Source: an uncultured Erysipelotrichaceae bacterium (GTDB lineage Bacteria > Bacillota_I > Bacilli_A > RFN20 > CAG-826). Taken from it: a stretch of DNA of 62,076 bases. The notes under the pieces are model-generated. The model saw only the letters and a program-made list of their open reading frames with translations, did no database searches and was not told the origin of the DNA. The stretch covers positions 188,907-250,982 of the forward strand of contig CADCFC010000001.1 of assembly GCA_902800645.1 (NCBI GenBank). Direction: 5' to 3'. Shown here piece by piece: positions 1,763 through 62,076 of the stretch. Position 1 is the stretch's first letter. Every line of letters starts with the position of its first letter. The position numbers and the translations under genes are program-made.

Positions 1763-3580
1763 TTAATCGTCGTCTTCTTCATCGATTGAAAGAATTGACA
1801 TGAATGCTTCCTGTGGAACTTCAACAGATCCAACCTTTTTCATTCTCTTCTTTCCTTCTTTTTGCTTCTCTAAAAGCTTCTTTTTACGCGAAATATCTCC
1901 ACCATAGCATTTAGCTAAAACATCTTTCCTTACCGCTTTAACATCTACTCTAGCAATTATCTTGCCACCAATAGCGGCTTGAATTGGAATTTCAAATTGT
2001 TGACGAGGAATAACAGTTTTGATTCTTCTAATTATTCCTACACCTCGGTTATAAGCATGTTGTCTAAAGACAATGCTACTTAAAGCATCAACGACTTGGC
2101 CATTAAGGAGAACGTCCATCTTAATCAAATCATTTGGTTTATATGAGGATGGTTCGTAATCAAAAGAAGCATAGCCTTTTGTGCAGCTCTTTAATTTATC
2201 AAAGAAATTGTAAACAATTTCAGATAATGGTAATTCATAAACAAGTATCATTCTAGTGTCGTCAAAATATTGAAGATCTAAATAGATACCTCTTTTCTCT
2301 TGGCAAAGTTCCATAATTGGGCCGACATATTCTTTTGGAGTCATAATGTTAGCTTTAACATAAGGCTCTTCAATAGATTTAATCTTTGAAGAATCTGGAA
2401 GTTTAGATGGGTTATCGATATTAATCATTTCTCCACTAGTGAGATAAACATGATAGATAACTGATGGAGCAGTAAGAATTAAATCGATGTTATATTCTCT
2501 TTCTAATCTCTCTTGGATGACATCCATGTGTAATAAGCCTAAAAAACCACATCTAAAGCCAAATCCTAAGGCTTGAGAAGTCTCTGGAACGAATTGTAAC
2601 GAAGCATCATTTAGAGATAATTTCTCTAAAGCTTCTTTTAAATCTTGATAATCATCGCTATCGACAGGATATAAACCACAATAGACCATTGGATTAATAT
2701 CTCGATATCCAGGGAGCGCTTTTTCCGCTGGACGAACTGCGCTAGTCACAGTGTCGCCAGGTCTAACATCTTTGATGTCTTTTATCTGTGCGCATATATA
2801 TCCGACTTGTCCACACTTTAACTCTGTTAATTTAATTTCTTGAGGAGTTCTAATTCCTAATTCAGTAATAAAGTAATCTTTATTAGACTGCATAAGTTTG
2901 ATATGATCTCCGACTTTAACACCGCCTTCTTTAATTCTCACCATGATAACTACTCCACGATAAGAATCGTAGAAGCTATCGAAGATAAGTGCTTTTAAAG
3001 GAGCGCTTGGATCTCCACTAGGAGCAGGGACGTTTTTAACAATTCCTTCGAGTAATTCATGAATGTGATAACCGGTTTTAGCACTAACTTCCACCGCTTC
3101 ATCACTAGGAATGCCAATACGTTTTTCTATTTCTTCTTTTGCCCATTCAGGCATTGCTGATGGTAAATCAACTTTGTTGATAACAGGTAAAATCTCCAAA
3201 TTATTGTCTATTGCTAAATATACATTGGCAAGGGTTTGAGCCTCAACTCCTTGAGTGGCGTCCACTACTAAAACCGCACCTTCACAAGCCGCCAAAGAAC
3301 GAGACACTTCATAAGTGAAATCGACGTGGCCTGGAGTGTCGATTAAATTGAAAACATAGGTGTTACCATCATCACTTTTGTAGGATAATGTAACCGCGTT
3401 CAACTTAATGGTAATTCCTCTTTCTCTTTCAAGGTCCATTGAGTCAAGGATTTGATCTTTCATTTCTCTTTCAGAAATTGCGCCAGTCATTTCTAAAATA
3501 CGATCTGCAAGTGTACTCTTGCCGTGATCGATGTGGGCAATTATTGAGAAATTTCTAAGATATTTTTGATCAAAATCCAT
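1763..3580 (-). CDS. lepA: Translation elongation factor 4 (LepA)
   Basis: [52 protein letters not shown]. Confidence 0.99.
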
Positions 3581-3606
3581 AATTCTAGAGCATTATAACA
3601 TTTATG

Positions 3607-5949
3607 TTAATTTTTGAAAAACTTTTGTAAACTATCACGAATATCTTCTTCATTTACCACTACTTCATAGTTATCCCATTCTTTTTTAAAAAGAATTTTA
3701 TAATCATTCCACATATATCTTTCATCTATAAGTAGAGCAGCGCCTCTATCGGTTTCGCTTCTAATTAATCTTCCAACCGCTTGCATTACTTTATTCATGC
3801 CTGGATATGTATATGCGTAATTAAAGCCATTAATTTCGTTTTTCTTGTAATATTCCACTACTTCGTTACTTTCAAAATTAATCTTTGGTAGACCAATTCC
3901 TACTATGACTACTCCAATTAAAGAATCACCGACAAGGTCTATACCTTCTCCGAAAGCACCACCGATGATTGCTAGTCCAACTACCGTTTTTCTATTTTTC
4001 TTTTTGAAGGAAGAAATGAACTCTTCTTTTTCGCTTTCACTCATCTCTTTGTTTTGAATATGTACATCAACGTTTTTTGGAAATTCTATAACCTTTAGAA
4101 GGTTATCTAAATACTCGTATGATGGTAAGTAGATAAAATAATTACCTTTCTTAGCGTTTATAAATGCGAGTATATAATTAGCGACATCTTGATAAGTCTT
4201 GTCTCTATTTTTATATCGCGTAGATATTTTAGGAGCGATAAGTAGTTTCAAATTCTCTTTTGGGAACGGAGAATTTAAAGACAAAGAAGGAGAATTAGTT
4301 TTATCTCCACCAAGTAGATCAATGTAATAATCTATCGGAGATAACGTTGCAGAAAACATTACCGAAGAATTGACCATTCGATTTTTCTCTTTGATGAATC
4401 TTGAAGCATCTAAACAATAAAACTTAAGGATTAAATCAGTTTCGCTTTTATCAATATAAATAAGGTATCTTTCTGAAATTAATTCAGAAATCTTCAAGAA
4501 TTTATTAACTTCAATAAAAAGTTCTGTGAGCTCTTTACTTACATCTTTATTATTTTCTTTGTTCACTTCTTGATAAACAGTTACAAAGCGATTGATGATT
4601 TTATATCCTTCTTCACTTAGATCATCTATCTTTGTTTGACCATATTCTAAAGAGGAATCATATTCATCAAACATCTTTCCAATTTTCGCTAAGATGTTTT
4701 TGATCTTTTTATTAGAGATATGCCTCTGCGCTTTTTTTGCCTTTTCTAAAGTTGATTTTTTAAGTTCGGCGCTAAACATATCTTTGGAGCGTTCTACTAA
4801 GTTATGTGCCTCATCAACTAGAACTATATGATGAGTACTATCTTCATCAAAATATCTTTTAAGATACGCAGTTGGGTCATAAACGTAATTATAATCGCAA
4901 ATAATAATATCGGAATATAAAGACAAATCGAGTTCTAACTCAAATGGACAAATCGAGTGTTTATTAGCGATAGAGACAATAGTCTCATTATCAAAATCCT
5001 CATATCTAATAAGTGATTCTTTAATCACGTCTTTAATCTTGTTGTAATATCCCTTTGCGTAAATGCATTCATCAGGATTACACGCTTTATCTTTGCAGAA
5101 GCAAATCTTTTCTTTGCTCATTAAGATAACGCTAGAAATTGTTAAACCATTTCTTCTTAATATCTCTAAAGCATTATGAGCGTTTTCTTTTCCAGTCGCT
5201 TTAGCGGTCAAGTAAAAGATTTTCGTTTTATCATCTTCAAGTAGATACTTAATCGAAGGGTATATAGTAGACATAGTCTTACCTATACCAGTTGGAGCTT
5301 CAATAAATAAACTATTGCTATTTTTATGCGCTCCATAGACGTATTTAGTAAGTTCATATTGCCCATCTCTAAAATTATCAAAAGGAAACTCCAAGGACTT
5401 AATCGATTCGTCTCTTTCTTCTTGAAGTCTTAATACAACGTTATAAAACTCTAGATATTTTTCAATCAAATCATAAACATAGTTTTCTAACTCTTTTGTT
5501 ATATAAGTATAGTTTTCGATCAGCTTTTCACTTTCTTTACCTTGACGGATATAAGTTAATCTCACTCCGATATGATCTAAACCTAAGGCATAAGCGAACA
5601 TATATGCATAGCATTTGGCTTGGCCGAGATGCCACTCAAGGTTTTCATCTCTAAATTCTTTTAAGCTAATAGCTGTAGTTTTGATTTCATCAATAATGTA
5701 TTCTTTATCACTCTTTTTGATAATTCCATCTGCTCGACCTTGAATAGTGACTTCAATTTCATTAACAACAAATGACTGTTTAAGAGGATATTCAGATATG
5801 TAATTAGTGCCTTGTTTAGCTTGATAAATACCGTGGAGTCTAGTTCCTTCGGTTTGAGAAGAACGATTAAAAACGCGATTATCAATATCGCCTTTTCTTA
5901 AAAGAAAGTCCACTAATTGGTGGACGCTTAATTCTAATTTAACATTCAT
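3607..5949 (-). CDS. Rad3/XPD/DinG-family Fe-S DNA helicase with N-terminal PD-(D/E)xK nuclease domain
   Basis: GRADGI...IDEIKT...QAKCYA nuclease motifs; EAPTGIGKT, DEAH, SATL, QAVGRLIR; Fe-S cysteines ICFC..CNPDEC..CPF. Confidence 0.9.
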   Translation of the reverse strand: MNVKLELSVHQLVDFLLRKGDIDNRVFNRSSQTEGTRLHGIYQAKQGTNYISEYPLKQSFVVNEIEVTIQGRADGIIKKSDKEYIIDEIKTTAISLKEFRDENLEWHLGQAKCYAYMFAYALGLDHIGVRLTYIRQGKESEKLIENYTYITKELENYVYDLIEKYLEFYNVVLRLQEERDESIKSLEFPFDNFRDGQYELTKYVYGAHKNSNSLFIEAPTGIGKTMSTIYPSIKYLLEDDKTKIFYLTAKATGKENAHNALEILRRNGLTISSVILMSKEKICFCKDKACNPDECIYAKGYYNKIKDVIKESLIRYEDFDNETIVSIANKHSICPFELELDLSLYSDIIICDYNYVYDPTAYLKRYFDEDSTHHIVLVDEAHNLVERSKDMFSAELKKSTLEKAKKAQRHISNKKIKNILAKIGKMFDEYDSSLEYGQTKIDDLSEEGYKIINRFVTVYQEVNKENNKDVSKELTELFIEVNKFLKISELISERYLIYIDKSETDLILKFYCLDASRFIKEKNRMVNSSVMFSATLSPIDYYIDLLGGDKTNSPSLSLNSPFPKENLKLLIAPKISTRYKNRDKTYQDVANYILAFINAKKGNYFIYLPSYEYLDNLLKVIEFPKNVDVHIQNKEMSESEKEEFISSFKKKNRKTVVGLAIIGGAFGEGIDLVGDSLIGVVIVGIGLPKINFESNEVVEYYKKNEINGFNYAYTYPGMNKVMQAVGRLIRSETDRGAALLIDERYMWNDYKILFKKEWDNYEVVVNEEDIRDSLQKFFKN

Positions 5950-54660: not shown

Positions 54661-55223
54661 TAATAATTTAATAGTCTCCCATAATCATTCCACTCACCAT
54701 ACATTTTTCCTTTTTTGGTTTCATTAATAAGATGGGTGAGTGATTTTTTATACATAACAGGGTCTTTCTTTTTATAAAAAGCAACATTATATGATCTCAC
54801 TCTTTGATATAAAGGTGGAAAAGATTTAAACGCTTTTAATAAATGATGGCTGCTCAGCGCTTTTTTAATATCTTCATCAAGTTTATAACTTCTACTTCCT
54901 AAAGGAGGGAGGACTTTTCTTCCTTCTTTTTCCATTAAACCTAGTTTAATTAATCTTCTCACTCTTTCTTTATTAAGTTCAGTCCAAGGAGATCTTTTGT
55001 TTCGAGGAGAGAAGCGTTGATAAATCACTCCATCAACACTTTTTTGAACACTATCAATCCAGCCAAAGCAAAGGGCTTCTTCAACCGCATCAAGATAATA
55101 GAAACCGTGTTTAGTTGGTTTCCCTCTTTTAACGATCAAATAACATTCTCTAGATTTTTGAGAATGCTCTTTAAGCCAAAGGCGGAACTCTTCACGAGTG
55201 GAAATAGCTAATATGTTATTCAT
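54660..55223 (-). CDS. YdeI/OmpD-associated family protein
   Basis: REEFRLWL, YLDAVEEALCFGWID, FSPR...WTELNKER. Confidence 0.9.
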   Translation of the reverse strand: MNNILAISTREEFRLWLKEHSQKSRECYLIVKRGKPTKHGFYYLDAVEEALCFGWIDSVQKSVDGVIYQRFSPRNKRSPWTELNKERVRRLIKLGLMEKEGRKVLPPLGSRSYKLDEDIKKALSSHHLLKAFKSFPPLYQRVRSYNVAFYKKKDPVMYKKSLTHLINETKKGKMYGEWNDYGRLLNY

Positions 55224-56448
55224 TATTTTAAGAATTTGGAGAGAATTTTCTTTTTCTTTTGGCTATATGGATGCTCTCTTAAAGAAAGATTAAAATGCGT
55301 CTTTCCAAATAAAACCGTAGAAGGATGAGTGAATTCTTTAAATCCCCATTCTCCGTGATAGGCTCCCATACCAGAGTGGCCAGTTCCATTAAATGGAACT
55401 CCTTTCACCATTAAGTGGAGACATACTTCATTAACACAACCTCCACCATATTGAGATGTGGACATTACTTTCTTTGCCCACTTTTTATTTTTGGTAAAGA
55501 GATATAATGCTAAACCGTGTTCTCTATTTTCAATAACTTTCAACAAGGAATTAATCTCATCATCTTCATATCTAACAATTGGTAAAAGAGGTCCAAAGAT
55601 TTCGTGATTAACAATGCCTTCATCAATATTTATAGGATATATAATCGTTGGAGCGTATTTTTGTTTTTCTTTATCACCAACTCCACCATAAACGATTCTA
55701 TCTCTATATTCATTTGCTTCTTTTTCAATATTCTCAAACGCTCGAACAGTAATTAATTTTGGATATTCTTCGTTATTAACTGGATCAGGGCCAATTTGTT
55801 TAGTGAATGCATCTTTTAGTTCTTTAACAAATTCATCTGCGACTTCACTAGCGACAGCAACTTGATTGATATTGATACAAATCTGTCCAGCGTTAGCGAG
55901 TCTAAGCAGTAATCAGCGACATCATGTCCTCCATCAATCACCACTACATATTCTTTTGGAAATGTAGATGAAATGATCTCTTTTAAGACTTCGGTAGACG
56001 CTTTTGATTTACTACTTGCTTTAATTAAAGCAGTGTTACCACCACTAATAGAGGCAGCAAGAACGCCTAAAGATAACAAAAATGGGAAATTAAATGGAGA
56101 AATAATTAAGGACACTCCATAAGGAAGTTTATATACCTTAGTAAAAATAGAAGGGAAACAGGCAAAACCTGAGAAATGTGTTTCTGGTCGATTCCACTTC
56201 CTAAGTCCTTTAATGTATTCGTTTATTTCTAAAATGATTGTGCCGATATCGCAGAAATACGCTTCGACATCACTTCTTCCTAAATCAATATAAAGAGCTT
56301 CTTCAATCTTCTTTTGGTTTAAAAGAAGGGCTTTCTTTAGCTTTTTAAGAGCTTCAATACGGAATTTAATGTCAAGTGTTTTTCCGGTTTGGAAAAATTC
56401 TCTTTGCGCTAAAAAGAGATTATGAATATCTTCTTTACTATATGGCAT
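55223..56448 (-). pseudogene. Aldehyde dehydrogenase (ALDH3-like) pseudogene with internal deletion and frameshift
   Basis: N-half (ISPFNFPF, GGHDVADYCL) joins out of frame at ~55900 to LANAGQICININ...EIFGPLLP...PFNGTGHSGMGAYHG; FTGS and ELGG segments absent. Confidence 0.88.
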
Positions 56449-57760: not shown

Positions 57761-58727
57761 TTATTTTCTACCTGCAAGAATTCGATAAAGCGGATTAACA
57801 AATCTTTTAAGAACGTATCCAATAGAGACGCTTATGATTGAAGTAATAATCCAAGTTAGAAAGAAAAATAAAACACAATTATAGTTAGTGAGATTCACTC
57901 TCGCTCTAAAGATAAGCCCGAATAATTGAGCAATCGAGAAATGGAAGAAAAATATAAACGCTGAAATCTTAAAGACTTCATGTACACTTTCTTTTTGATA
58001 TAAAGAGAAGAGAACATCAAATGATATCCATAATAATGCAACTTCCAGCAATTAAAGAGGCTATTACTAAAAGCAAAATTAGTGAAAAAGCCCCAATTAA
58101 TCTCGGTTTAAAGTGATTCATGATAGGAATCTTAAAATATGACAAATAGCAGCCAACAAAAAATAGCGGAATCCAAAGGAGTATTCCATAATAATTTGGT
58201 GTGAAGAAAATATAAATAACAAAAACAATAATCGGAATAAATATTGACCACTTCTTTAAATATTTAAAGACGAAATATAAAAGAGGCGAGCATATACAAA
58301 ACACCACTAACGGACGAATAAACCATATATGTAGGCATCCGTTAGAAAGAAAAATATCTAAAGCAACACTTTGAAACGTCAATTCAATCGTTTCTTTTTT
58401 TATCGCAGGAACAATAATTCTTACTGCTAAGAATCCTAAAATACTCCACAAGAAATATGGAATTACTAAAGAAAATAATTTCTTAAGTAACATCTTAGGA
58501 TAATCTTTTAAAACATAGTTATTAAATAACAAGTAACCAGATATTACAAAAAACGTCGGTACTGCTGCATCTCCTAAAGTGAGAAATATCCTTTGGATGG
58601 TTAATGAAAATTGATATCCATTTGCCAAAGGATCAAGAAAACCAGTAAAGGAAGAATGGATCGCAACGACTAAAATCGCCATTATGAAAGTCGCATAATA
58701 AATCTTGTTTGATATTTCCTTGCTCAT
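57761..58727 (-). pseudogene. Acyltransferase-3 family gene split by a frameshift
   Basis: ILVVAIH, AVPTFFVISGY, SLVIPYFLWS, HIWFIR in 58017..58766; C-terminal FIFFFH...ILAGRK in another frame (57761..58051), overlapping at 58017-58051. Confidence 0.8.
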
Positions 58728-58987
58728 AGTTTTGTTAGTCTTAAAATAATCTAACACATTATACAAAATCGTCTAACAAAAAATTAGAGCCATATTATAA
58801 AAAAACATGTAAATTGATTAAAATCTCTTTACATGTAGTAATTATAATAGGTCACTATTTATCCTAAAGATATACATGCTGCAAGAAACGATTTAGATTA
58901 AGAATAATTGCAAACATAATCATCATCAGGAGTGATCATTATATTTTTGGTATTTATAAAATGGTTATTAACAAAATAAATTTTGAA

Positions 58988-59269
58988 TTATAAGCGGTTC
59001 CACTTCTTTCCGCATCCTTTGCAGCGAGCCCAACCATCTTTTACTACAACGTCGTTGCAACCGCAGAATGGGCAATCAGACTGATTAATTGCATCTCCAA
59101 TATCTGAAACAACGCTACAAGCTCCACCACCACTAATAGCAGAAAGTTGTTCATCAGTGAGCTCAATGCCTTCTTCTTTTGCTAACGCTAATAGTTCATC
59201 GTGGTTTTTACATTGTTTTACTTTTTTGATTTGTTCTTCGGTTAATCCTTTTAATAATTCTTTTTTCAT
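58988..59269 (-). CDS. Nif11-like leader, double-glycine precursor peptide 1 with zinc-ribbon-like core
   Basis: ELLALAKEEGIELTDEQLSAISGG leader; core with CPFCG...CKGCGKKW; GGAGGAG SD before ATG 59269. Confidence 0.85.
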   Translation of the reverse strand: MKKELLKGLTEEQIKKVKQCKNHDELLALAKEEGIELTDEQLSAISGGGACSVVSDIGDAINQSDCPFCGCNDVVVKDGWARCKGCGKKWNRL

Positions 59270-59294
59270 ATTAATACTCTCCTCCACAATTAAT

Positions 59295-59624: not shown

Positions 59625-59903
59625 TTATTTTTTGCTCCATTCATGACCGCATTTTGTGCAAGTGAGATCATAACCAACAAATGGGAACCAAACCCATTCA
59701 GTTTTAGTTGATCCACATTTTGGACATTTTACGTCACTAGGAGGTTCAGATGTACATCCACCGCCGCTAACAGCCTCTAATTGTTCATCAGTGAGTTCAA
59801 TACCTTCTTCTTTTGCTAACGCTAAAAGTTCATCACTATTTTTACAGGCTTTAACCTTAACGATTTGTTCCTCGGTTAAGCCTTTTAATAATTCTTTTTT
59901 CAT
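59625..59903 (-). CDS. Nif11-like leader, double-glycine precursor peptide 2 with zinc-ribbon-like core
   Basis: ELLALAKEEGIELTDEQLEAVSGG leader; core with CPKCGS...CTKCGHEW; AAGGAG SD. Confidence 0.85.
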   Translation of the reverse strand: MKKELLKGLTEEQIVKVKACKNSDELLALAKEEGIELTDEQLEAVSGGGCTSEPPSDVKCPKCGSTKTEWVWFPFVGYDLTCTKCGHEWSKK

Positions 59904-59929
59904 ATACTAAGCTCTCCTTCAACAATATC

Positions 59930-59962
59930 ATTTTAGCAAATCAACGTCACAAAAGTGTCACA
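59930..59962 (-). promoter_or_regulatory. Promoter with 11-bp-period tandem operator
   Basis: Minus strand TGTGACA-CTTT-TGTGACG-N9-TAAAAT (TGn-extended -10). Confidence 0.6.
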
Positions 59963-59963
59963 T

Positions 59964-59997
59964 AAAAATAAAAGGACATACAAGTTTGTATATCCTT
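59964..59997 (-). terminator. Intrinsic terminator just downstream (minus strand) of the left tRNA-like repeat
   Basis: AAGGATATACAA-AC-TTGTATGTCCTT-TTATTTTT. Confidence 0.7.
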
Positions 59998-60008
59998 AAC
60001 CTACAAAT

Positions 60009-60027
60009 TGGCTCTCTTGTTTGATTT
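60009..60027. repeat. 19-bp direct repeat, left copy (att-like)
   Basis: TGGCTCTCTTGTTTGATTT; 18/19 identical to 62058..62076. Confidence 0.9.
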
Positions 60028-60035
60028 GGACACAA

Positions 60036-60107
60036 TCGTATATGAGATTGTGAAGTTTGTACATGAGATGCTCGTTTTTCGTACATCAATCAAAAATTTT
60101 CGTACAT
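60036..60107 (+). repeat. Four phased T(C/T)GTA(C/T)AT motifs
   Basis: GTA(C/T)AT cores start at 60038, 60059, 60081 and 60102 (spacing 21, 22, 21). Confidence 0.7.
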
Positions 60108-60243
60108 TGAAATTATAGCAGTTTTATCGTGTAACGATAGGACATTGTTTTCAGTGGGCGAGATTTTATCCTTTTTGGACTTCTCACAGATTACTAAAAC
60201 CGATAATGCACCAAACGATGGCTAGCAAAGATACTGAAGGATG

Positions 60244-60276
60244 AAAAAAGGCCGAAGCACACATGGGCATCGGCCT
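60244..60276 (-). terminator. GC-rich terminator after the cargo gene
   Basis: AGGCCGATGC...GCTTCGGCCT-TTTTT. Confidence 0.75.
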
Positions 60277-60299
60277 AAATTCGTAGTTAATCGTGACCT

Positions 60300-60881
60300 C
60301 TAGCAGGAATATGAGATCGTGAGTGAGGTGATGGTAACGCTGCCCTCCATAACACTAAACGACGGACATTTGGAAGGGGTAATTGATGGAACTTCGTATG
60401 GTTTCCCGCTTTCGACCATATGGATATGCTTATCCATGCTTTCAAAGTTCACGTCCACGGGTAATTCGGGTCCTTCGGGTCCTTCGGGTTGTTCTCCTTT
60501 GCTCGAGTAAGAAATCTCGAAGCCAGTGATGGTGGAGAACTCATAGGCGCGCCCCACCAATACGTCCTCGATGTCAAAGAGGCAGAGTTCCATGAAGGAA
60601 GCGCCTTTGAAGGTGAAGGACGCCTCGTCGTTGTAGCACCCCACCATGCCGACCTTGTTGCCATTATCGGTTGCCGTGGTAAAGACGATGAATTCTTGTC
60701 CATATACATCCACCACCTCAGATGAGGTGTTGCTTTCGTTGAAGGTGACGCTGTATTCTTTTGGATCAGATTTTACTTGTAAATAGCTTAGATGATTTTT
60801 TATTCCACTTAATGTAACAACGGAAATACCAACTAAAAAAAGCGTTCCCATTAAAGCTGATAATACTGCCATTTTCTTCAT
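60300..60881 (-). CDS. Exported hypothetical protein ending in ITSLTISYSC
   Basis: MKK + hydrophobic signal/anchor, AAGGAG SD, own terminator; same termini pattern as 56919..57647. Confidence 0.75.
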   Translation of the reverse strand: MKKMAVLSALMGTLFLVGISVVTLSGIKNHLSYLQVKSDPKEYSVTFNESNTSSEVVDVYGQEFIVFTTATDNGNKVGMVGCYNDEASFTFKGASFMELCLFDIEDVLVGRAYEFSTITGFEISYSSKGEQPEGPEGPELPVDVNFESMDKHIHMVESGKPYEVPSITPSKCPSFSVMEGSVTITSLTISYSC

Positions 60882-61026
60882 ATTTTCTTTAAACTCCTTT
60901 AAATAAAATAATCAACTAATTTCTTTTATTTTATAGGAGGAAGAAATGATGAGCAAGCACTATGTGCTAGAGTGCCATTTTTTTAATAATTTGATATTCT
61001 TACCACATTGCTGGAGGTAATGTAAA

Positions 61027-62019
61027 ATGATTAAGAAAGCTCGGTTATTAGAAGAGAATACGAAGCTAATAAGAAAGATTTTTATCTTTGAACATATTGG
61101 AATTGGTTACAATGCTTCAATTCAAGAAAAAGAAGAGGCTACCAAAAGATTTCTTGAATTAAATCCAACTTTTACCGCATATGAAGTATGTACCACTATC
61201 GGTTTATCAAGAGGAACTTTTTATAATTATCTTCATCACAAAGTTGAAGAAACCGTATATGCGAAGAATGAGAAGCTACTCACCAAAGAAATAATTAGAA
61301 TTTTTAACGAATCCAAAGGACTATATGGGCAAAACAGAATTCGAATAGTGTTAAGGCAAAAAGGAATTAACACTACTACAGTTACAATTTCCAAAATAAT
61401 GAAAGAGAATAATTTAAAAGTTAAAAGAGTTATTCAAAGACCATCAGCAAAAGAAAACAACAAAAAGAAGAAAGCTAACTATAAAATAAATCTTTTAAAA
61501 CAACAGTTTAATCAAACATCTCCAAATAAAGTTTGGGTATCGGATTTTTTAGAATTAAAAGTTAATTCTGTAAAGTTTTATATATGTGCAATACTAGACC
61601 TATATTCACGAAAAGTTATCGCCTGGAGATTATCACATAAAAGAAACGAAAAACTTGCGATAAATACATTTAAAGATGCATTTGAAAATAGAAACGAACC
61701 AGAAGGATTGGTTTTTCACACGGACCAAGGTGGAGAATTCACCTCTAAGGCATTTATGACTACTTTAAAGATGTTAGGCGTTTCTCAATCCTTTTCTTTT
61801 CCTGGTAATCCATACGACAACGCAGTTATGGAAAGCTTTTATTCAACTTTAAGGAAAGAAGAAATCAATATTAATATTGATAAATATGAAAATTCACTCA
61901 TAATCAAACAATATCTAGAAAAATATATCCACTATTACAACGAACAGAGAATTCATACTGCAATTGGAATGTCGCCAGACCAGAAAGAGGGTCAAAAAAA
62001 TTATTTATTAAATAAATAA
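61027..62019 (+). CDS. IS3-family-like DDE transposase/integrase (single ORF, no OrfA seen)
   Basis: LSRGTFY, YGQNRI, PNKVWVSDF, LDLYSRKVIAW, FHTDQGGEF, DNAVMESF, YYNEQRIH; GGAGGT SD. Confidence 0.92.
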   Translation: MIKKARLLEENTKLIRKIFIFEHIGIGYNASIQEKEEATKRFLELNPTFTAYEVCTTIGLSRGTFYNYLHHKVEETVYAKNEKLLTKEIIRIFNESKGLYGQNRIRIVLRQKGINTTTVTISKIMKENNLKVKRVIQRPSAKENNKKKKANYKINLLKQQFNQTSPNKVWVSDFLELKVNSVKFYICAILDLYSRKVIAWRLSHKRNEKLAINTFKDAFENRNEPEGLVFHTDQGGEFTSKAFMTTLKMLGVSQSFSFPGNPYDNAVMESFYSTLRKEEININIDKYENSLIIKQYLEKYIHYYNEQRIHTAIGMSPDQKEGQKNYLLNK

Positions 62020-62043
62020 AAGAGATTCGTTGGTTCGAATCTC
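62014..62043 (-). terminator. Terminator oriented for a minus-strand transcript entering from the right repeat
   Basis: Minus strand GAGATTCG-AACCAA-CGAATCTC-TTTTATTT; no T-tract on the plus side. Confidence 0.6.
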
Positions 62044-62057
62044 AATAGTGTTCCATA

Positions 62058-62076
62058 TGGCTCTCTTGTTCGATTT
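62058..62076. repeat. 19-bp direct repeat, right copy (truncated by window end)
   Basis: TGGCTCTCTTGTTCGATTT. Confidence 0.9.

Follow-up and report, generated by a model that had tools for sequence, protein, structure and literature searches.

The window analysed here comprises 62,076 nucleotides, the final 62 kb of contig C1 in the genome assembly of an uncultured Erysipelotrichaceae bacterium. At its right-hand end lies an IS3-like unit of about 2.05 kb, element A (positions 60009 to 62055), which is composed of one cargo gene and a DDE transposase gene consisting of a single open reading frame (ORF). A 19-nucleotide sequence (19-mer) opens the unit and recurs two bases beyond its right end. 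The earlier note on this DNA had taken the two copies for displaced tRNA 3' fragments and the transposase for a site-specific tRNA integrase. The comparisons reported below make it likely that the copies are instead the left tips of two head-to-tail elements, which belong to an IS3-like, cargo-carrying family that homes to the ends of tRNA genes and inserts, in one orientation, 2 bp behind the CCA. The features of the locus are listed in Table 1.

Table 1. Features of element A and its borders (window coordinates)
Feature	Position	Strand	Basis or remark
Terminator-like hairpin and T-run in the left flank of element A	59972-59997	-	Structure scan
Left terminus (left inverted repeat, IRL) of element A; starts with TG and includes 19-mer copy 1 and the box TTTGGAC (60025-60031)	60009-60038	+	
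Direct repeat in three copies, GTACAT (extended to TCGTACA in two), 22 and 21 nt apart	60059-60107	+	
GC-rich hairpin with a T-run behind it, probably terminating the cargo gene	60250-60275	-	Read from the sequence; loop of >8 nt, hence missed by the hairpin scan
Cargo gene, 193 amino acids (aa), N-terminal signal-like segment, no known family	60300-60881	-	ORF
Conserved 5' block of the cargo family (signal peptide and upstream region)	60846-60982	-	85-86% identity
Single-ORF IS3-like DDE transposase, 330 aa	61027-62019	+	ORF, domains, IS3 model
Hairpin and T-run with the T-loop-like word GGTTCGAATC (62032-62041)	62022-62043	-	Faces minus-strand transcription from the right
Right terminus (right inverted repeat, IRR) of element A, ending in CCA	62026-62055	+	Homology limit
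Two-base spacer TA	62056-62057		Between the right end of element A and the second left terminus
19-mer copy 2, first 19 nt of the second left terminus (C variant)	62058-62076	+	C variant also in metagenome contigs L096 and L097

Both copies of the repeat, TGGCTCTCTTGTT(T/C)GATTT, are on the plus strand, at 60009 to 60027 and at 62058 to 62076, and agree at 18 of 19 positions: the first reads TGGCTCTCTTGTTTGATTT, and the second has C for T at position 14. With up to two mismatches allowed, the 19-mer had exactly two matches in the window against 0.01 expected by chance (100 shuffles). Base 62076 is the last base of C1, so that the second copy fills the final 19 bases of the contig and is cut by its end. 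A search of the whole 1.3-Mb, 60-contig assembly with up to three mismatches returned no further copy except one 16/19 match on contig C20, and no contig end that continues the 19-mer.

The tips typical of IS3 elements are present (TG at 60009 and CA at 62055), and the inverted repeats are weak and asymmetric. In the TGG.../...CCA register, 15 of 30 positions agree between the termini of element A, and 0.45% of the 30-mers of the window score as well as this; long terminal inverted repeats are thus lacking, as had been observed at the outset. The hairpins and T-runs described previously behind the CCA-like ends of the repeats were recovered on the minus strand at 59997 to 59972 and at 62043 to 62022, starting 11 and 14 nt, respectively, after the CCA-like end of the corresponding repeat, and the right one holds the T-loop word given in Table 1. 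The GTACAT copies, which are kept in the element of a genome of the same genus (G016) and in L097, are candidate subterminal binding sites for the transposase; two to three direct repeats also occur at other left ends of the clade. The longer form TCGTACA is not enriched in the window (4 matches versus 4.5 expected) and stands out only as a local cluster at 60079 and 60100.

The transposase contains the Pfam domains HTH_21, rve, rve_3, and rve_2 and scored 253.4 bits with the NCBIfam IS3 model NF033516 (cut-off, 160), aligning to positions 62 to 367 of the 369 positions of the model. The catalytic residues D173, D233, and E269 are present and are invariant or nearly so in an alignment of 33 sequences. 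There is no OrfA frame upstream: the protein is encoded by one 330-aa ORF without a frameshift, and the two-frame orfA/orfB organization of IS3 is not found. In these respects, as in the presence of a single cargo gene, the first description of the unit was accurate. The clade to which the transposase belongs comprises 477 database clusters of single-ORF proteins at E <=1e-10. The nearest relatives (317 to 335 aa) come from genome bins of Bacilli and Erysipelotrichaceae, and remoter ones of about 380 aa (375 to 395) have an extra N-terminal helix-turn-helix. This single transposase of 317 to 395 aa is the only gene conserved across the members.

Close relatives delimit the element. The G016 copy is 86% identical over 60121 to 62060 and 71% identical over 60009 to 60128; its homology begins at TGG, behind an unrelated left flank, and extends to 62060, where a complete tRNA-Thr(GGT) gene of the opposite strand follows immediately. 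A scan for the left terminus identified two metagenome contigs, L096 and L097, which provide two further left flanks and have tRNA-Thr(GGT) 0.9 to 1.3 kb rightward. Homology to G016, L096, and L097 starts exactly at 60009, the left flanks all differing. Because the same sequence bounds all of these copies behind differing flanks, the 19-mer is the start of the left terminus of the element itself. At the other end, homology to the copies in G016, G002, and G005 stops at 62056 to 62060. The 21 nt from 62056 to 62076 are identical to the left junction of the G016 copy. In L096 and L097, units with the left terminus of element A and without a transposase lie beside tRNA-Thr. The sister species G002 has the same left neighbour as our window, a gene for a Nif11-like peptide, and its contig C10 runs from the right end of the element through TA into tRNA-Thr(GGT); this copy is without a left terminus.

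These comparisons bear directly on the nature of the repeat. The 3' end ...CAAGAGAGCCA that a donor tRNA would need is absent from all 45 tRNAs and the tmRNA that ARAGORN found in this genome, the assembly being 90% complete and lacking tRNA-Trp and one CAT tRNA. Beyond the common TGG, the repeat agrees with the end of tRNA-Thr(GGT) at 5, 11, and 7 of 27 positions at offsets 0, 1, and 2. On this sequence evidence, the repeat is not a displaced tRNA fragment and travels with the element. The other possibility raised in the earlier note, that the repeat is an insertion sequence (IS) left end and that a second copy begins at 62058, fits the sequence and is matched by the identical boundaries in G016 and in the two metagenome contigs.

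The hairpin module in the left flank of element A (59967 to 60004) has a homologous 38-nt counterpart in G012 and G013, where it is located 5 nt from the CCA end of tRNA-Thr(GGT); element A therefore begins where that tRNA would begin. In addition, the 25 bases before copy 1 (59984 to 60008) and the 25 bases before copy 2, which are the right end of element A, are identical at 13 positions, and for this reason the left neighbour looks like the right end, or a terminator module, of an older cassette. The left-flank hairpin is not a high-copy repeat of the genome, in which AT-rich chance matches only were obtained, and a search for an array of hairpin-then-TGG junctions farther left in the window revealed nothing convincing.

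The relationship to tRNA genes was surveyed in the transposase clade with the 33-member alignment as the query, one genome per species, and loci oriented with the transposase on the plus strand. Some of the loci evidently share contigs with the relatives compared above; only the best 80 stretches were counted. In 53 of these 80 loci, the right end faces the CCA of an intact tRNA or tmRNA gene that converges on it, 2 bp away. ARAGORN called a minus-strand tRNA at 50 loci, with TGG (the CCA end) directly following the element, and Rfam called tRNA-Met at two (L031 and L035) and a tmRNA at one (L059). At two further loci (L030 and L032), a transposase-less segment of 0.64 or 1.18 kb, opening with TGG and two to three direct repeats, precedes a tRNA-Met. 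A 3' tRNA fragment (T-arm, acceptor strand, and CCA, without a 5' half), called by neither program, was found at seven loci, a T-arm-like mimic at two (L021 and L077), and a left-end-like segment at one (L036); at four loci, the flank (<=151 nt) was too short to judge.

The 53 intact neighbours represent 17 anticodon types plus tmRNA, and the orientation is the same in all of them. As an internal control, the left flanks (244,099 bp) contained 1 tRNA, and the first 320 nt rightward contained a tRNA in 50 of 80 loci, always on the minus strand. Loci adjacent to tRNAs are found throughout the transposase tree, which was built by a quick maximum-likelihood search from 76 rows after the exclusion of 5 fragments of <250 aa; a row lacking a tRNA often has as its sister a row that has one. 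The transposase gene is always the gene nearest to the tRNA, at a distance that is fixed within each subfamily.

The junctions are exact to the base. Right ends were read inward from the tRNA, and 50 ends were reduced to 24 clusters less than 70% alike. As with the TA spacer of the window, 2 nt separate the end of the element from the CCA of the tRNA at 50 loci; counted by cluster, this gap is seen in 20 to 22 of 24. Positions 1 and 2 are variable and differ even between near-identical copies; T occupies position 3 in 20 clusters, and G occupies position 4 in 22. Since positions 3 and 4 read TG, the element ends in CA, two bases from the CCA. Farther inward, positions 19 to 24 read TTTGAA in 14 to 20 of the clusters, and positions 29 to 32 are T-rich. 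The tetranucleotide GAAC has its first base at position 22 in 10 clusters, at position 23 in three others, and at position 24 in one; all 24 tRNA ends, counted inward from the T of TGG, have the first base of the T-loop GAAC at position 21. An imperfect dyad is thus centered on the 2-bp gap, its arms being the right terminus and the tRNA end, both of which have a TG tip and, about 20 nt in, a box of the T-loop type. The left terminus in the window also has TTTGGAC in that register. The hairpin and T-run of the right end are oriented so as to stop transcription leaving the tRNA. Comparison of the loci shows that insertion in this family is site-specific and has a single orientation, 2 bp beyond the CCA that the tRNA and tmRNA genes encode. 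The tRNA stays intact, because the right terminus faces it and the transposase gene converges on it. The part of the integrase proposal that concerns a DDE enzyme tied to tRNA 3' ends is thus supported, and the part that made the repeat an integrase-type tRNA fragment is not. Targeting of tRNA genes is well supported by the relatives and not by this window alone.

Near-identical copies at different tRNA genes are evidence of recent movement. L020 (beside tRNA-Pro) and L026 (tRNA-Trp) are 97.7% identical over 4.9 kb, and L073 (Leu-GAG) and L076 (Pro) are 98.9% identical. L025 (Glu-CTC) and L034 (Glu-TTC) are 94.4% identical over 4.56 kb, with both ends visible and unrelated left flanks. Such copies carry up to 3.8 kb of cargo: the L025/L034 unit of 4.46 kb encodes a LysR regulator, a MATE transporter, and a 118-aa ORF, and the L020/L026 unit encodes FeoA, FeoB, and a DtxR-like repressor. 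Compact members of about 1.35 kb, such as L075 (1,347 bp), encode the transposase alone. In these comparisons, cargo and transposase move together. Head-to-tail arrays also occur among relatives. The earlier note had proposed the carriage of cargo and, as a possibility, the building of tandem arrays.

Several loci of the survey have features of their own. The clade member of L059 (3209 to 3558) abuts the 3' end of tmRNA with the same 2-bp gap as at tRNAs. In L053, the element is located between the tRNA-Ala and tRNA-Val genes of one cluster (3544 to 3618 and 5006 to 5081), which indicates that insertion inside tRNA operons is tolerated. The transposase of L030 has a stop after 5 codons (about 4001 to 4020), which makes it a dead copy in a tandem arrangement. 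In L009, a 70-nt direct repeat (1 to 70 and 831 to 900), which contains a T-arm-like hairpin with a CCA end, lies on both sides of a small ORF of the minus strand; a related transposase is located downstream, and the tRNA-like piece points in the direction of this transposase. The loci with 3' tRNA fragments are L048, L055, L057, L060, L063 and L066 (the latter identical to L063), and L069; in L057, L060, and L063, homology extends 300 to 450 nt beyond the fragment. These fragments could be leftovers of integrase islands or could travel with the element.

An array is apparent in L102 (contig C16 of G061, reverse strand), in which five similar hairpins, AAAAAGGAYTGA...GTATCAATCC, occur at 2449, 6057, 9093, 9929, and 11332. 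Four of the five are followed about 12 nt on by a start reading (T)TGG, the whole spanning 9 kb and ending at tRNA-Glu(TTC), and one 1.4-kb transposase-less cassette is flanked by the same hairpin on both sides. L102 looks like an integron-like cassette array at a tRNA end. The DNA beyond 62076 could resemble this G061 array or the L096 and L097 units.

A mechanism compatible with these data would run as follows. The transposase itself would select the site, since the compact members encode nothing else. It may engage a tRNA gene, through the T-loop box and the CCA end, in the way in which it binds its own right terminus, the tRNA end acting as a surrogate inverted repeat; this idea comes from the right termini, in which this box recurs with nearly equal spacing from the TG...CA tip. 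Once inserted, the element would supply, with its right-end hairpin, a replacement for the displaced terminator of the tRNA. Repeated insertion at one tRNA end, or beside tRNA-end-like left termini, would stack elements and transposase-less cassettes into arrays, either because a new element lands between an older element and the tRNA or because it lands beside a left terminus that starts with TGG and is loosely tRNA-end-like. At the contig end, the second 19-mer would be the left terminus of another, non-identical element placed 2 bp after the right end of element A.

Other explanations were considered. The junction at the contig end could join the right and left ends of one and the same element, as in a tandem dimer or in a circular intermediate of copy-out/paste-in transposition. 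The ends are 2 bp apart, and the junction at 62055 to 62058 has the form expected of a circle with abutted ends; moreover, the element occurs just once in the assembly, and C1 breaks off 19 nt into the repeat. However, the second 19-mer differs from the first by the C that replaces T, the variant present in G016, L096, and L097, and the transposase-less units with this left terminus beside tRNA-Thr make a different second element at least as likely. Twenty public sequencing runs contain part of the stretch, and the best four were assembled as contigs with a word depth of about 3 to 9 over the element. The contig of run X1 has the same left flank as our window, but its bases at 60010 and 60022 are T instead of G and C instead of T, respectively. 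The TGG tip is thus variable, and another strain has the C variant in the first copy of the repeat as well, so that strains may be mixed. On balance, we regard a junction between the two ends of the same element as rather unlikely.

We give hardly any credence to the view that the 19-mers are duplicated tRNA 3' halves of the kind (att-like) made by integrase islands. In its favor, the minus-strand repeat ends in CCA and is followed by a terminator, and the succession of TGG, 13 nt, and TTTGGAC loosely recalls an acceptor end and a T-loop, shifted by one base from the true register. Genuine 3' tRNA fragments are, moreover, found next to some relatives. Against this view, no tRNA or tmRNA of the genome has such an end, and the agreement with tRNA-Thr(GGT) is poor, as detailed above. 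The G016 copy has the sequence as its left boundary and an intact tRNA-Thr with a different 3' end on its right. Neighbouring tRNAs are complete and are not repeated at the far end in the loci inspected (L025, L034, L075, and G016), and neither a tyrosine or serine recombinase domain in element A nor an integrase among the 10 ORFs of 50.9 to 58.8 kb was found. Finally, the association with tRNA genes might not be the choice of the transposase at all and might reflect a survival filter behind tRNA genes or another recombinase for which the transposase is a passenger. Hairpin-bounded arrays of transposase-less cassettes do exist, implying that something mobilizes or duplicates them, and 11 of the 80 copies are away from tRNA-like sites. 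This explanation is nevertheless very unlikely given the 2-bp gap in most copies, the single orientation in 53 loci, and the range of 17 anticodon types plus tmRNA, since survival filtering would not yield base-exact junctions. In addition, compact members encode the transposase only, and the transposase is always nearest to the tRNA.

The homing of two head-to-tail elements to tRNA ends, which we consider the likely explanation, has its own difficulties. The family counts cover the best 80 of 384 confirmed stretches, 11 of these loci have nothing tRNA-like at the right end, and the adjacency control consists of the left flanks of the same loci. Inspection by eye gave no clear left ends for the off-target copies L058 and L065. 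The T-loop-like box is absent from the delimitable left termini of other subfamilies, and the resemblance between left and right termini is poor, which leaves the right end as the sole basis of the surrogate-repeat idea. A 3-bp target duplication (TGG) fits every copy at a tRNA site, trivially, because it is indistinguishable from a TGG encoded by the element; a 2-bp duplication fits 4 of 10 junction pairs, which were compared by eye and are not all independent. As for the window itself, ARAGORN found no tRNA in it, blastn of 59900 to 62076 against the genome matched only itself, leaving one element copy in the assembly, and the shallow contigs from public runs gave nothing past 62076, with neither a joint nor a loose end there, the segment 61993 to 62076 being skipped as a repeat. 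All visible copies of the left terminus of the element A type are found at one tRNA, Thr-GGT, and this subfamily offers little means of distinguishing a vertically inherited locus from one of repeated insertion. Furthermore, the tRNA-Thr(GGT) gene of this genome is located on contig C12, where its 3' side is occupied by a hairpin of its own and a methylase-like ORF, with no transposase.

The arrangement in this genome consequently differs from that in the sister species. Because the 3' side of tRNA-Thr(GGT) on C12 consists of its own hairpin and the methylase-like ORF, element A and this tRNA are probably kept apart by additional DNA, of which the second left terminus is the start. Most likely, the array adjoins tRNA-Thr(GGT) as in the sister species, the joining sequence not being in the assembly. 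The methylase-like ORF (C12, 1 to 1005; so named from a reading of its translation) is cut by the contig start and could be cargo of the second element. A protein 100% identical to the cargo protein of element A over 98% of its length (P0121) is encoded on a 323-kb contig, which is longer than our 251-kb contig and may reveal the sequence that follows 62076.

The cargo protein had no Pfam or NCBIfam match, and none of its 28 homologous clusters has a Pfam domain or a name. The G+C content of the gene region is 46 to 52% (60200 to 60800), versus about 30% around it, which suggests a foreign origin or a constrained repeat region; three 9-bp tandem units resembling CGGGTCCTT lie within the gene at 60458 to 60493. 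The conserved 5' block is 85 to 86% identical at several places in G012, G013, L096, and L097, the gene bodies being 66 to 69% identical, and in these four sources paralogues and orthologues of the cargo gene adjoin tRNA-Thr(GGT) without a transposase.

To the left of element A, two small minus-strand genes (58988 to 59287 and 59625 to 59903) encode a Nif11-like leader ending in GGG and a Cys-rich, zinc-ribbon-like core, with Pfam scores below the cut-offs. Homologues of these genes are found at the same place in G002 and G011 and also on metagenome contig L096. The products may be precursors of a ribosomally made peptide. Farther left, an aldehyde dehydrogenase gene is in two separate pieces (55223 to 55546 and 55816 to 56448), and an Acyl_transf_3 gene is possibly split (57761 to 58051 and 58017 to 58766), the Pfam match being in the 58017 to 58766 piece only. 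The region left of the element looks like decaying accessory DNA.

The IS3 family is among the largest families of insertion sequences and is usually credited with little target choice. The elements described here resemble IS911, IS150, and IS3 in their rve-type DDE transposase, which passes the IS3 model, in their TG...CA tips and short imperfect repeats, and in the compact 1.35-kb size of some members. They differ from these elements by a single fused ORF without OrfA or a frameshift (the Bacilli subclade also lacking the first 61 positions of the model), by passenger genes between the left end and the transposase, by strongly asymmetric ends with direct repeats on the left, and by site- and orientation-specific insertion at the ends of tRNA genes. 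For IS911, OrfAB without OrfA is said to insert beside sequences resembling the ends of the element, in work attributed to Loot et al. (EMBO J, 2002) and Rousseau et al. (J Bacteriol, 2008). Targeted insertion of IS911 beside end-like sequences is mentioned in one source (PMC7986276), and another describes how the N-terminal part of the IS911 transposase binds a subterminal repeat region and leaves the tips to the catalytic domain (PMC2909936). The likeness lies in a transposase of the same family that sets an element end a few base pairs from a repeat-like target, and in the lack of OrfA throughout our clade. Here, however, the target is a universal host feature, the T-loop box and CCA of tRNA genes, and its use is apparently the normal mode rather than a laboratory condition.

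Within the IS3 family, IS1397 and ISKpn1 insert into repetitive extragenic palindromic (REP) sequences. Such insertion is the subject of PMC1525189. These elements share with ours a structured, repeated chromosomal target, which here is the tRNA 3' end rather than a REP sequence and is combined with cargo and arrays. Tn7-like elements need several proteins, TnsA, TnsB, and TnsC plus TniQ/TnsD or Cas. Homing of Tn7-like and CRISPR-associated transposons downstream of tRNA genes is reported in PMC9881144, PMC11915506, and PMC8649781. Fixed-orientation insertion downstream of a tRNA gene that stays intact and the carriage of cargo are common to both systems; in element A, only one IS3-type transposase gene is found, without TnsB, TnsC, or TniQ, and in the family the gap to the tRNA is 2 bp. 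The islands of tyrosine integrases also occupy tRNA 3' ends, carry cargo, and stack in tandem, whereas here no integrase and no duplicated tRNA segment were found and insertion takes place outside the tRNA gene. In eukaryotes, Ty3 of yeast targets tRNA genes. The same holds for the TRE retrotransposons of Dictyostelium, according to PMC5633606. For these retrotransposons as for our elements, tRNA genes are safe landing sites; the present case is a bacterial DNA transposon, and recognition is presumably of DNA and not of the transcription machinery.

A full-text literature search, which did not extend to ISfinder or to most subscription journals, returned no report of an IS3-type element targeting tRNA genes, and none is reported in passages of PMC2430713, PMC3556495, and PMC6211511. 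The habit thus appears to be undescribed for IS3-type transposases, although an earlier description is possible. More broadly, we propose tentatively that a large clade of one-protein IS3-like transposases in gut and rumen Firmicutes may read any tRNA or tmRNA 3' end as a surrogate inverted repeat, add a replacement terminator, and build integron-like arrays, which would amount to an RNA-free safe-harbour system.

If correct, tRNA targeting by these transposases would join integrases and Tn7-like systems as the third way in which hotspots of foreign DNA arise at tRNA genes. The members of the clade land base-exactly behind tRNA genes, carry efflux, iron uptake, and secreted protein genes as cargo, and stack into arrays. 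Their activity would explain islands at tRNA genes that contain no integrase and some of the contig breaks that metagenome bins display near tRNA genes. Because one protein of about 330 to 390 aa is conserved, the target rule (T-loop box, CCA, and 2-bp gap) is directly testable, and if it holds, the protein would provide a compact site-specific insertion tool for a site present in every bacterium. For the study of insertion sequences, the clade would offer a natural test of whether the loss of OrfA locks an IS3 transposase into targeting repeat-like sequences.

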